From the NCBI GenBank assembly GCA_964016885.1, contig OZ024749.1:9548001-9612000 (forward strand): a stretch of DNA of 64,000 bases, read 5' to 3'. Of the stretch, positions 1,229-41,830 are shown one piece after another (the first letter of the stretch is position 1; every line of letters begins with the position of its first letter). The position numbers and the translations under genes were made by a program. Below the pieces are notes generated by a model. The model was not told the origin of the DNA and did not search any database. It was given only the letters and a program-made list of their open reading frames with translations. This DNA is from Eledone cirrhosa (lineage: Eukaryota).

Positions 1229-1431
1229 ATCAAGTTTAATATAGAAATAGCTTCTATAGGACTAGAAGTGTTTTATTCAGAAGAAATCATAAAGAAAGCC
1301 TAATGATTTCTTCTGAATGAAACAGTTCTTGTCCTGTAGAAGCCATTTCTATATTAAACTTGATGTTTACACCTCTACCAATGTATTTAGTACCTTATTA
1401 ACTGTGGTTACCCCCAATTAAATTTGGGACT
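1229..1431 (+). mobile_element. Fold-back PLE stub with degenerate hammerhead
   Basis: Inverted arms 1229-1290/1303-1364, unique tail, microsatellite flanks; cTAATGA-tttc.ttct.gaat-GAAAc..gTC motif. Confidence 0.7.
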
Positions 1432-1700
1432 TACACACATGAACACACACAGACACACACACACATATATATATACATACACACACACACACACATAGAT
1501 ATATATATATATATATACACACACACACAGATAGATATATATACATATATATATATAAAGATGGAGAGGGAGAGAGAGAGAGAACAAGAGAGAGAGAGAA
1601 CAAGAGAGAGAGGAAGATGAAAAGGAAAGAGGTGGACAGACACAGAGCAAGATAAAGAGAAGGGGAGAGGGGACAAAGAGAGAATAGAGACAGACAGAAA
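1432..1700. repeat. Compound (CA)/(TA)/(GA) microsatellite
   Basis: Visible directly. Confidence 0.95.
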
Positions 1701-2019
1701 TAGAAAAAAAATTATCAAAGAGAAATATTTTTATTGGATTAAATTCTTCTTTGTTGAAACCAAGATAATGAATGAAACACACAAACGACAAGTTTGCTTT
1801 TCTAGAAATAAAAAACAACAACACACCGAAATAATAATAAGATCTAACTAAAACATAAGAAGTTTCTCTAAAGCAAGTTTATCTTTGCATCATTCTTGTG
1901 ACAAAGTTAAACCAATATGAAGAATATATTGCTGTTGACGAGGATGTTGACTGTAACCAAGATAGTTGTTGCTACAGACAGATAATAATTTCTTCTCCCA
2001 TAATAATAAATAAAAACAC

Positions 2020-2270
2020 ACACAAAAACAAGATGGCGTAGGACAGAACAAAGGAGAAGCACAAAACAAAGAGAAGAATCCCCAGTCACTGAAGAGGTCA
2101 CAGAATGTGTGACGAAAGAACTTTGACAATATATGAACAACCGTCCAGTTGTGGAACGAACCAACCAACCAACCGGAAATTTATAAATTTAATTTATAAT
2201 ATTGGAGTGAAAGCAACTGATGTGTGGGTTTCTTATTGGCAACATGACCCCAAAGTATAACAATAAATAA
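2020..2270 (+). mobile_element. PLE pseudo-LTR fragment related to the PLE at 54.5-58.2 kb
   Basis: Same order of AAGATGGCG motif, hammerhead and catgacccc.aaagtataacaata tail. Confidence 0.7.
2085..2127 (+). ncRNA. Minimal type I hammerhead ribozyme
   Basis: gtca-CTGAAGA-g-gtcac(agaatgt)gtgac-GAAA-gaac-TT-tgac; stems I and II fully paired. Confidence 0.75.
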
Positions 2271-2319
2271 ATGTTTTCCTTTAATAATTCTAAGATGCTA
2301 CATTATTATTATTATTATT

Positions 2320-3668
2320 ATATGGCCCTTATGGAGTCAATAAAATAAAATACAAGTAACGCACTGAGGTCAAAATAATCGACTTTTCTCTCCCTGAAAA
2401 TTGATGGCCTTGTGTCGAAATCAGATACAATTATTATTATTATTATTAAAATAAAGTACCAGTAATACACTGGGTAATTGCTGGCCTTGTGCCTAACGTA
2501 GAAACAATTATTATTATTATTATTATTAAAGGGCGGTGGAGTGGCAGTATCGGTAGAGGATCGGACGCCATGCTTTGATGCATAGAGTTATGGCCCTTGC
2601 CATTCTGAGTTCAAATCCTGCCGAGGTTAACTTTGCCTTTCATCCTTACGGGGTCGATAAAATAAAGTACCAGTAATGTACTGGGTAATTGCTGGCCTTG
2701 TGCCAAACGTAGAAACAATTATTATTATTATATAGGGCGGTGGATTGGCAGTATCGGTAGAGGGTCAGCCGCCATGCTTTGTAGCATAGAGTTACGGCCA
2801 TTTATGATCTGAGTTCAAATCCCACCGAGGTTAACTTTGTCTTTCATCCTTACGGGGTCAATAAAATAAAGTACCAGTCATGCGCTGGGGCGAATAATCG
2901 ACTTTCCCCTCCCCCAAATTGTGCCTTGGCAGTATCGGTAGAGCGTCGAACGCGATGCTTTGACACATAGAGTTACGGTCCTTGCCATTCTGAGGTCAAA
3001 TCCTGCCGAGGTTAACTTTGCCTTTCATCCTTACAGGGGATAAAATAAAGTACCAGTAATGCACTGGGGTAATTGCTGACCTTGTGCCAAAAGTAGAAAC
3101 AATTATTATTAGTATTATTATCATTGGATTGGCAGTATCAGTGGAGGGTCGGACGCCATGCTTTCCAGCATAGTTACGTCCCTTTACGATCTGAGTTCAA
3201 ATCCCGCCGAGGTTGACTTTGCCTTTCATCCTTACGGGGTCGATAAAATAAAGTACCAGTACTGTACTGGGTAATTGCTGGCCTTGTGCCTAAAGTAGAA
3301 ACAATTATTATCATATAAGGCAGTGGATTGCCAGTATGGGTAGTGTGTTGAACAAGATGCTCTAGAGTATAGAGTTATATCACTTTATGTTCTGAGTGCA
3401 AATTCAGCCAAGTTTAGCTTTGCCTTTCATCCTTACTGAGTTGATAAAATAAAGTATCAGTAACACACTGGGGTCAATTTAATCAACTTTCCCTTACCCC
3501 TAAAAATTGTTGGTCTTGTACCAAAATCAGAAACCGTTATTTACGGTCTGAGTTCAAATCCCGCCGAGGTTAACTTTGCCTTTAATCCTTACGGGGTCGA
3601 TAAAATAAAGTACCAGTAATGTACTGGGTAATTGCTGGCCTTGTGCCTAAAGTAGAAACAGTTATTAT
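2320..3668 (+). mobile_element. Head-to-tail cluster of about 8 full or partial tRNA-SINEs
   Basis: Repeated tggcagtatcggtagag..gagttcaaatccc..gcctttcatccttacggggtcgataaaataaagtaccag..agaaacaa(tta)n units. Confidence 0.9.
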
Positions 3669-3669
3669 T

Positions 3670-39889: not shown

Positions 39890-40164
39890 TAGAAAGTGAG
39901 GTTTTTTTTACAAAATGAAAAATAACCGAGGTGTCCTACACAAGTGAAAGGAAAAAGAAAAAAAAGATGAAATCGAAAATGCAACTGGAGTCTTATTTTT
40001 AAAAATATATATATATATTTAATTGGTTCCTTTACCCTCCATCTCAACTCTACTTTTGAAAAGCAGAAGAACTGCGAAACCGGTAAAGGAACCAAATAAA
40101 TATATACATTTTTTTTTTAAAATAAGACTCCAGTTGCATTTTCGATTTCACCTTTTTTTCTATC
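39890..40164 (-). mobile_element. Fold-back PLE stub; degenerate hammerhead on + at about 40052-40090
   Basis: Arms about 39958-40036/40082-40160; TTGAAAA-gcag(aagaa)ctgc-GAAA-ccgg-TA. Confidence 0.7.
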
Positions 40165-40888
40165 TATATATATATAGGTTAACACAAATCAATATATTTG
40201 ATAAACACAAATATCCTCATATTTATGTTTATATTGTAAATGACCAAGTTAGCTAGATAGAAATATACTAATAATAATATTACAGTTTGCCTATAAGATA
40301 ATACATCATAAATCAACAAAAACAAATTGTATTGGCAATGGCCGTAGTGCTTGGACAAATTTAAATTTCAAAATCAAACCTGTTCCGTAGACAGGTTTAA
40401 ACCTTAAAATCCAAATATGTTTCGAATAATGAAAAAGTGGAAGAAAATACCGCATTTTGATCTCCTCAGCAAGCACTATAAAAATTGGTATGTTCCACTT
40501 CAAAATATTTAGGAAGACTGTTTAGCGCACGAGGTAACCTCATGCGGTTATCCAGTGTCTAGCTAGCCTCATACTCGTGCTGCTAGAAATAACAGCCGTT
40601 TGTATGGGGCTAAAATCAGCTCAACGAAGGAGCAGTGAAAAATCAATAATAATGAGTTCAAATCTCAGGCGATCATTTACAATGAAATAGCTCGAAGAAA
40701 GATTATTTCTGAGCCGTGTAATATAGGTTAACACAAATCATATGTAATATATGTAATATATATGTAATATATGTTATATATATATATATATATATTATAT
40801 ATATTACATTCAAAGTTATGGATGTCATGCTTGAGATAATCTCGAACATATATATTTGTGTGTGTGTATATTTTGTATATATGGTACA

Positions 40889-41109
40889 TTTACAAATGAA
40901 CATTTGAAAGCCATTAGCTATGAATTTTGGAAGTTAATGATGTAGAGCCATCAAGCAGATTCCAGCAGAAGAAGGGACAGGTAATTATCAATGATTGTCG
41001 TTTGTTTTATGGTTCTATGTCATCACCTTCCAAAATTCATAGCTAATGGCTTTCAAATGTTTATTCGTAAACATACTGTATATCGCTAGATATACAAAAT
41101 ACACATACT
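40889..41109 (+). mobile_element. Diverged fold-back stub, no recognisable hammerhead
   Basis: Arms about 40889-40951/41009-41071, short tail, TA-rich flanks. Confidence 0.6.
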
Positions 41110-41189
41110 TATATGTATACAGCTATGTTGGCGTGAACACCTTTATATATATATATATATATATATATATATATATAAACACACACACG

Positions 41190-41550
41190 ACCGTGACCTC
41201 TGACATCACGCAGTAATACAGAGTACCCGACCTCCCATGGGTACAAGCTGAAGCATATAGACAATATGCCCCCACACACCCCACTGCAAGGTGGTCGTGG
41301 AGGTGCCACGGCAAAAAAGCACCCAGCCCACACTGTAAAGTGGACGTGTAGGCGCGACGAAAAAGCACCCAGCACTCACTGTAAATGAGGTTGGTGTTAG
41401 GAAGGGCATCCAGCTGTAGAAATCGAGCCAAATCAGTTCCTGTATGAGCAAGGCATGGTCAGCCAACCAGACACTGCCCACAACAGGACAACCCGTCTAA
41501 CCCATGCTAGCGTGGAAGAACGGACGTAAAACGGTGATGATGATGATGAT
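41190..41550 (+). mobile_element. RTE-related 3' UTR / non-autonomous copy
   Basis: ggttggtgttaggaagggcatccagc..cccatgctagcgtggaa..(GAT)n. Confidence 0.7.
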
Positions 41551-41626
41551 ATATATATATATCATCGTAAACTTTTGGTAGATTTATCTACATATATATA
41601 TATATATATATATATATATATATATA

Positions 41627-41830
41627 AGTCTAAAGAAAGTGCTCAAGCACAGAAATACTATAAAGATAGCTTATAAAATAGAGTGAAGATCCTTAAAAGA
41701 TGGAAAAAGAAGTTGCCATTGGCTGCTATAAGGAACCTCATATCTCCCAGATACTGGCTAGAAGCTTTAACCATTAAGCTACGGAGCCGTGACAATTCAA
41801 AAGCCAAAAATTTGGCTTCGTACATTGTTT
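41627..41830 (+). mobile_element. TA-flanked stub with degenerate hammerhead
   Basis: CTAAAGA-aa-gtgc(tcaa)gcac-a-GAAA-tacta-TA. Confidence 0.45.

Follow-up and report, generated by a model that had tools for sequence, protein, structure and literature searches.

What are the short, hammerhead-bearing fold-back inserts that sit in the (TA)n arrays of Eledone cirrhosa, and how do they form? The question is raised by a 64-kb stretch of its 3.0-Gb genome (contig OZ024749.1, positions 9,548,001–9,612,000; hereafter the window), in which a first-pass annotation listed 13 such inserts and proposed that many lineages of Penelope-like elements (PLEs) target TA arrays and leave, or propagate as, small ribozyme hairpins, possibly as a retrozyme-like nonautonomous class. 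We find that the inserts are the 5'-truncated ends of at least 11 PLE families and not one self-copying hairpin class. The insert population itself, as first noted, is a known outcome of PLE insertion, and the inverted copy, the tail, the hammerheads, and the (TA)n targeting are already known; what sets it apart is a near-strict pairing of two start sites and a stem shared clade-wide by the tails, the latter of which we did not find described. We consider it probable that the inserts are 5'-truncated PLE insertions made through two primings in TA arrays, with the conserved tail stem as the likely recognition element.

Checked one by one, all 13 inserts proved genuine and each adjoins (TA)n arrays. 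Local inverted arms are found in 9 of them by self-BLAST of the masked window (Table 1), and short arms are visible by eye in the insert at 24228. Of the others, 28738 is an inversion without duplicated sequence, and 12577 and 41627 are single arms. A whole or partial hammerhead, read by eye against family copies, is present in 12 of the 13, with none seen at 41627. The tails had been called unique; they are instead family-specific, with 674–4209 first-look genome candidates per searched family. For true fold-backs, a density of one per 3–5 kb was likewise too high, as those abutting TA occur about once per 14 kb in a sample of 60 evenly spaced 10-kb pieces of the genome (600 kb total), and nine true ones lie in the window. 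TA arrays number 12 per 10 kb in the window and 15 per 10 kb in the genome samples, and SINE-like repeats and LINE remnants (short and long interspersed elements) are abundant in the window.

Both enrichments implied by the first-pass annotation are borne out. The outer end lies within 12 nt of a TA run in 44 of 93 sample fold-backs (4.7 expected), and a stricter type I hammerhead descriptor finds 12 matches in the 600-kb sample and none after shuffling. In the window, the descriptor finds 2 (0.15 shuffled) and its stricter version 1 (0 shuffled). A control core, CTGTNGA, gives 3 matches under the stricter descriptor in the sample (0.2 shuffled), and an Rfam scan of the window returned no hammerhead among 118 hits at E ≤ 1. 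Hammerhead fold-back inserts occur genome-wide and far above chance, and many PLE lineages do target TA arrays and leave hammerhead-bearing inverted stumps. A MITE (miniature inverted-repeat transposable element) or other DNA transposon, which would have terminal inverted repeats of fixed length at both ends, was considered and rejected: the copies continue into a tail at one end, differ in inner length, and form a 5' truncation gradient.

Which elements gave rise to these inserts was read from genome searches with ten inserts and two queries derived from family B. Candidates numbered hundreds to thousands per family, and the 14–30 best-scoring or first-listed loci were read for each; the assignment of families D, E, and H comes from copies located in flanks. 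In family G, the youngest, at least 31 copies are identical across a stretch of 183 nt. Its parent locus (L061, period 3527 bp) consists of an inverted partial pseudo-long terminal repeat (pLTR), a direct partial pLTR, a reverse transcriptase–endonuclease (RT–EN) frame that contains a single frameshift, and a tailed pLTR. Its translations, read by eye, give an RT followed by a C-terminal GIY-YIG EN, two frames in order, with an RWK motif, DKG changed to DKT, a CxCX5C linker, and no CCHH; a CxxC and a CxH lie near the EN end, as also in relatives of A and J. About 130 nt past the EN stop of this locus, a second CTGATGA box lies early in the family G 3' untranslated region (UTR).

The domain order, RWK, DKT, the linker, the CxxC and CxH, and the lack of CCHH, together with the type I hammerhead (in the pLTR of this locus), the (TA)n insertion, the inverted 5'-truncated copy, and the tail, are also reported for the Hydra clade of C-terminal EN+ PLEs, which includes Hydra-1_Obim (Craig et al. 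2021, PMC8557442). By its motifs, the G parent is assigned to the Hydra clade. Its period exceeds the "generally under 3 kb" given for that clade, a tendency only. The tails also differ, being about 55–120 nt here and 30–40 in the published elements, and this genome adds several young abundant families, noncoding riders, and an altered hammerhead core in family A. Pfam assigned no family to any of 4 PLE proteins, and the family A protein counts 599 relatives of about 700 aa.

A Hydra-type EN lies upstream in relatives of A and J, two families with full-length protein-coding parents, and also in relatives of D and, in one locus, of H; D and H likely trace to Hydra-clade parents, judging from this EN. 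For family K, a CCHH-type EN lies upstream in two loci, which identifies its predicted parent as CCHH-type, and a remnant in one relative of family C suggests that it probably has a similar origin. Family B is about 530 nt long, has no frame, and shares its 5' end among five copies; its description as a 145-nt element was dropped once longer copies appeared.

How the arms are put together is best seen in 99 two-armed insertions of families A, B, G, and J, with arm ends taken as BLAST edges. Each family has two fixed 3' ends—i.e. the tail end and an inner site 55–120 nt upstream. Among 55 family A arms not selected by the query, 26 stop at the tail end (within 1 nt) and 20 stop 86 nt inside it. 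Independent DNA contigs hold more than 100 loose ends per run at the family A inner site, followed by TA. No empty site was present in these contigs for any window insertion, and target-site duplications are unreadable inside TA arrays. A tail arm is combined with an inner-site arm in 88 of the 99 copies. For the 43 copies that were not tail-selected, 37 are mixed, 5 inner–inner, and 1 tail–tail (P = 8e-7 against free choice).

The inner junctions, by contrast with the idea of hairpins that propagate as such, are distinct in 92 of the 99 copies, including 12/12 in G and 22/22 in J, and many different family A inner joints also appear in the independent contigs. As such, the fold-back is rebuilt at each insertion, and the shared breakpoints that a self-copying hairpin calls for are mostly missing. 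It is very unlikely that the hairpins form a retrozyme-like class—i.e. are transcribed, processed by the hammerhead, and re-inserted as hairpin units—and for A, G, and J this is largely refuted. Some junctions do recur, one of family A in 3 loci (two with common flanks) and three of family B in 2–3 loci each, and the ends of 22 of 30 unselected B arms cluster in a 17-nt span at the hammerhead 5' edge, over helix I and the first core box. Yet a recurrent B junction has its tail sometimes on one arm and sometimes on the other, families A, G, J, B, D, and K have longer and full-length relatives (among them the full-length protein-coding parents of G, A, and J), and the whole core is missing in most window copies. 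Since most copies have a truncated or mutated hammerhead, it serves to mark the vicinity of the element's 3' end and is not the functional unit of the stump.

The proposed nonautonomous class survives in part. B/E, L, and M look nonautonomous, and the retrozyme idea fits L alone and, loosely, B. Family L is a noncoding unit of about 355 nt with a U3-A8 hammerhead and no open reading frame motif; its longest shared upstream sequence is 359 nt. Among 14 loci examined, a head-to-tail junction is present in L184, L187, L188, L192, and L195, and the tandems are partial only. By this genomic layout, L appears retrozyme-like, resembling animal non-LTR retrozymes in its length, its noncoding hammerhead-bearing unit, and its head-to-tail arrangement (PMC7229834; bioRxiv 10.64898/2026.07.22.740005). 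Unlike these, the other families here are not tandem, and fold-backs lie outside the retrozyme definition.

The geometry fits better with two primings than with the published self-priming model. In the latter, proposed for PLEs of Adineta (PMC3846280), a tail-primed cDNA stalls, folds back, and copies itself to the inner site, and later deletions leave unequal arms. Many short copies are indeed near-perfect palindromes, and the 5' edge of an RNA helix, a possible fold-back point, is a frequent stopping place for arms: besides the B arms above, 9 of 38 family J arms end at the edge of helix I and 7 at that of a hairpin further upstream, some J ends being possibly limits of subfamily homology. 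Family A arm ends are widely spread, with 11 of 55 near the inner site. Against self-priming, the inner-site arm extends further 5' than the tail arm in 40 of 88 mixed copies, and so holds sequence absent from the latter (3 of 10 in G), and the arms share nothing in 9 of the 88. A single self-folding cDNA cannot alone account for an inverted arm that holds sequence missing from its partner; later deletion could. Two B copies (L216, L223) run from the family 5' end to the inner site with no tail arm, which indicates that the inner site is usable alone, and tail-only copies exist as well (39656). We regard self-priming as improbable overall, if a little less so than hairpin propagation.

For the arms that stop at a helix 5' edge, our best guess is fold-back of a displaced cDNA end after both helix strands have been copied; a real RNA 5' end at this position is the alternative. 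A few copies of B and A have arms that end at the predicted cleavage site; these ends were not taken as evidence of cleavage, since they coincide with helix I microhomology and are not over-represented among unselected arms.

Under the two-priming reading, the element protein would nick both strands of a TA array, and two reverse transcriptions would start on the element RNA, one from the tail end and one from the fixed inner site. Both arms would be RNA-templated, and the two short cDNAs would meet and be joined, often across a few matching bases; such bases overlap at 38 of the 99 junctions. The tail stem, lying between both sites, would bind the Hydra-type protein and may let the noncoding riders B/E, F, I, and M use it. 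The hammerhead lies 30–70 nt inside the inner site, which is why short stumps contain all or part of it. In L1 twin priming, the second target strand primes internally on the RNA and produces an inversion; the inner site here differs in being fixed and near the 3' end, and both cDNAs usually cover the same stretch, which yields a palindrome.

Two primings match what is reported in vitro for the PLE PAc, of the Poseidon clade, which nicks and extends both target strands, with one start site on either side of the tail (Frangieh et al. 2024, PMC11167929). Both systems share AT-rich targets and copies that run past the tail into the next unit. PAc belongs to another clade and has an AC-rich stem-loop in one element, as opposed to a sequence-conserved stem across many families, and the genomic copies here show a near-strict pairing, with one site for each arm. 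Several points speak against this reading. The in vitro work found no strand preference for the start site, unlike the pairing here, 11 of the 99 two-armed copies pair like with like, and loss of arm sequence from palindromes after insertion could mimic a longer inner-site arm. The arm ends are BLAST edges, the set includes a few duplicated or possibly mispaired loci, and no parent was found for F and I in the loci read from the genome searches.

What could set two sites so close together on one RNA? Mining yielded 127 elements with arm and tail, grouped in 32 clusters; at least three of these are not PLE-like but were counted all the same, and family A is represented by the window copy in place of one that an internal TA run had cut short. 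In 17 of the 32 clusters, a stem of the pattern N-CTC-Y-R, 4–75 nt, T-(Y/A)-GAG-N' (in RNA, N-CUC-YR...UY-GAG-N') starts 7–16 nt past the inner site (0.24 in shuffles). The closing pair is Watson–Crick in 14 of these 17, with changes on both sides (A-T 9, G-C 4, T-A 1, G-T 2, and one mismatch; permutation P = 7e-4). In the window, A (three copies), E, F, G, J, and M have the stem, B, H, and I have it in degraded or cut form, and C, D, K, and L lack it. It is common to the Hydra families and the noncoding B/E and M, and is missing from the CCHH-type families K and C. The commonest fold-back of the random sample, a family not in the window, combines a long helix III with this tail stem (L279:5771, L285:3159, L310:2007, L315:7335, and L322:110).

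The stem extends beyond this genome, with a range that takes in corals, echinoderms, and marine plankton. Read by eye, six published Hydra consensuses (PMC8557442, File S7) have a complete stem in three cases (in the 3' tail of Hydra-2_Amil and Hydra-2_Ajap and at the 5' start of Hydra-1_Ajap), a partial one in two (Hydra-1_Crog and Hydra-1_Amil), and none in Hydra-1_Obim. Among 77 metagenomic loci encoding relatives, 60 have usable flanks and form 35 Hydra-type clusters, of which 25 carry the stem. It is found in 11 of 24 of the 3' regions behind the hammerhead (0.9 shuffled), in 20 of 26 of the 5' leaders (2.2 shuffled), and in 3 of 69 coding controls. Since the stem is present in leaders, the tail is where the next tandem unit begins, as it is in PAc. 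We found no description of the stem in the literature searched, which included the text of PMC8557442 and covered neither figure panels nor Repbase and Dfam entries.

Judging from its sequence, the tail stem is likely a handle gripped by the Hydra-type protein. It is less likely, though worth weighing, that the insertion model holds while the motif acts as a DNA site, for the EN or for a promoter factor of the next unit, and not as an RNA stem. The 3' half of the motif continues as a near-palindrome (GAG-YR-CTY) in most aligned rows, it lies in the next unit's 5' leader, and the tail of the Drosophila virilis element is reportedly needed for EN recognition of DNA (cited in PMC11167929). A DNA site is harder to reconcile with a spacer of 4 to about 70 nt, with the covariation of the closing pair, and with a pyrimidine–pyrimidine mismatch kept beside the stem (15/17 here and 22/25 outside).

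The RNA-handle reading has weaknesses of its own. The strict motif is absent in 15 of 32 clusters, the pattern was defined on data from this genome before being tested outside, and the clusters are related by descent, so the P values overstate independence. Outside this genome, the closing pair is Watson–Crick in 16 of 25 (P = 0.026), which is weaker than here. Finally, the reverse-complement control matches 2 of the 3' regions and 10 of 26 leaders, the latter because the motif is nearly self-complementary, and so it could act as DNA.

A broader model, to which we give about an even chance, is that Hydra-clade PLEs share a clade-wide CUC/GAG RNA handle, flanked by a pyrimidine mismatch, on which one bound protein dimer would set two priming sites on a single RNA, one per nicked strand of the TA array, and so make the inverted-arm-plus-tail structure. 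Any RNA ending in the module of about 100 nt, whether hammerhead-bearing, tRNA-like, or other, could then be mobilized in trans as a PLE-dependent SINE-like class. Family M (L149–L168) is likely such a SINE-like family by its sequence features: it is TA-targeted, carries a tail stem, and shows occasional inverted arms in its relatives. Its head is tRNA-like by eye only, and ARAGORN found no tRNA in the window.

How PLEs form inverted, tailed insertions is stated to be open (PMC8557442, PMC11167929), and this genome offers on the order of 10^5 natural insertion products, as extrapolated from 44 per 600 kb. It also points to the tail stem, short and conserved in the RNA, as a target for mutation and compensation in the in vitro assay that already exists. 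If this stem is the recognition element, it would define how noncoding riders use the PLE machinery, mark Hydra-dependent repeats that are now likely mislabeled as MITEs or unknown, and provide a minimal cis module for a TA-repeat-targeting RT.

The hammerheads themselves vary among families. The core is whole and unmutated in the window inserts I, J, and K, whole and mutated in B and H, and degraded or halved in C, A (13651), D, E, F, G, and L (40889). Family A, a young and abundant Hydra family as predicted from its EN, has a fixed CAGAAGA core in place of CUGAAGA (U4 to A) in 25 of 27 distinct copies (L001–L030), within a Hydra-type fold. All 26 Hydra rows of File S2 in PMC8557442 have CUGA, and the literature searches noted above returned no description of a natural U4A core. 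Descriptors miss the family A hammerhead because its helix II has 3 pairs only. A CAGAAGA in family K was also considered as a core box and rejected, as helix II begins with it and a U3-A8 box lies in front; K and L have the known U3-A8 core. Thousands of dispersed minimal hammerheads are described in metazoan PLEs, including opposite-strand pairs 100–700 bp apart that are ascribed to truncated PLEs (Cervera and de la Pena 2014, PMC4209133). Those described there share with ours the U3-A8 variant and a palindromic helix III, and differ from the long loop II of G, H, and I and the U4-to-A core fixed in A.

Upstream of the hammerhead, an octamer-like ATGCAAAT box followed by GAG occurs in families L (L187, L188, L192) and J (L107, L111, L114), in opposite orientations. 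We take this box to be possibly a promoter element.

Table 1. Elements of the window, with arms scored by self-BLAST
Element	Position	Strand	Self-BLAST arms	Parts
B, two-armed stump	1231..1436	+	1231-1362	Inner-site inverted arm; sense arm with hammerhead 1297-1344 (core mutated) and tail
O	2085..2127	+		Whole type I hammerhead; frequent family, not in the first-pass list
C, single arm	12577..12790	-		Degraded minimal hammerhead 12680-12650; no fold-back
A, fold-back	13651..13865	+	13655-13775	Arms 13651-13779; hammerhead cut in first box; tail stem 13782-13827
D, imperfect fold-back	18640..18761		18672-18717	Hammerhead pieces on both arms
E, B-like	24228..24409	-		Minus-strand tail arm and short inverted arm; tail stem 24302-24283
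F, fold-back	26424..26596	+	26424-26542	Arms 26424-26542; hammerhead 3' half 26491-26514; tail stem 26551-26570
G, fold-back	27097..27372	+	27097-27260	Arms 27097-27260; hammerhead 3' half 27197-27222; tail stem 27266-27306
A, longer copy	27386..28690	+		49-nt inverted arm; end of EN frame 27435-27620; 3' UTR; CAGAAGA hammerhead 28530-28580; tail stem 28607-28652
H	28738..29015			Inverted tail piece joined to inner-site arm; whole hammerhead 28852-28960 (core mutated)
I	29178..29431	+	29178/29216	30-nt inverted end; inner hairpin 29216-29272; whole hammerhead 29277-29366 (core unmutated); tail only begun
J, fold-back	36906..37307	+	36906-37241	Whole hammerhead 37109-37169 (core unmutated); tail stem 37222-37242
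A, tail-only copy	39656..39752	-		Stops at inner site
K, two-armed stump	39890..40164	-	39959-40159	U3-A8 hammerhead 40053-40088 on plus-strand arm (whole, core unmutated); no tail stem
L, decayed fold-back	40877..41143	+	40877-41083	Family is a noncoding head-to-tail unit of about 355 nt
M, single arm	41627..41829	-		tRNA-like segment; tail stem 41684-41641; no hammerhead seen

Family O occurs at about 12 loci per 600 kb and has a tail without the stem; no parent was identified for it. In two parts of the window, 26400-29450 (F, G, A, H, and I) and 39650-41830 (A tail, K, L, and M), families are chained through shared TA arrays, which suggests that an insertion leaves or splits arrays in which the following one can land. 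LINE/SINE tails of the (GAT)n type sit in many window TA arrays, so that the arrays collect other retroelements too, and one TA array, at 14103-14306, is enclosed by a 64-nt inverted duplication that stems from the (GAT)n-tailed 3' end of a LINE/SINE. A mariner-like element with 103-nt terminal inverted repeats lies in TA at 36062-36893 and adjoins insert J, and a similar element is present near 32570-33867. Tandem copies of a SINE-like repeat of about 200 nt, joined through (ATT)n ends, occupy 2447-3479.

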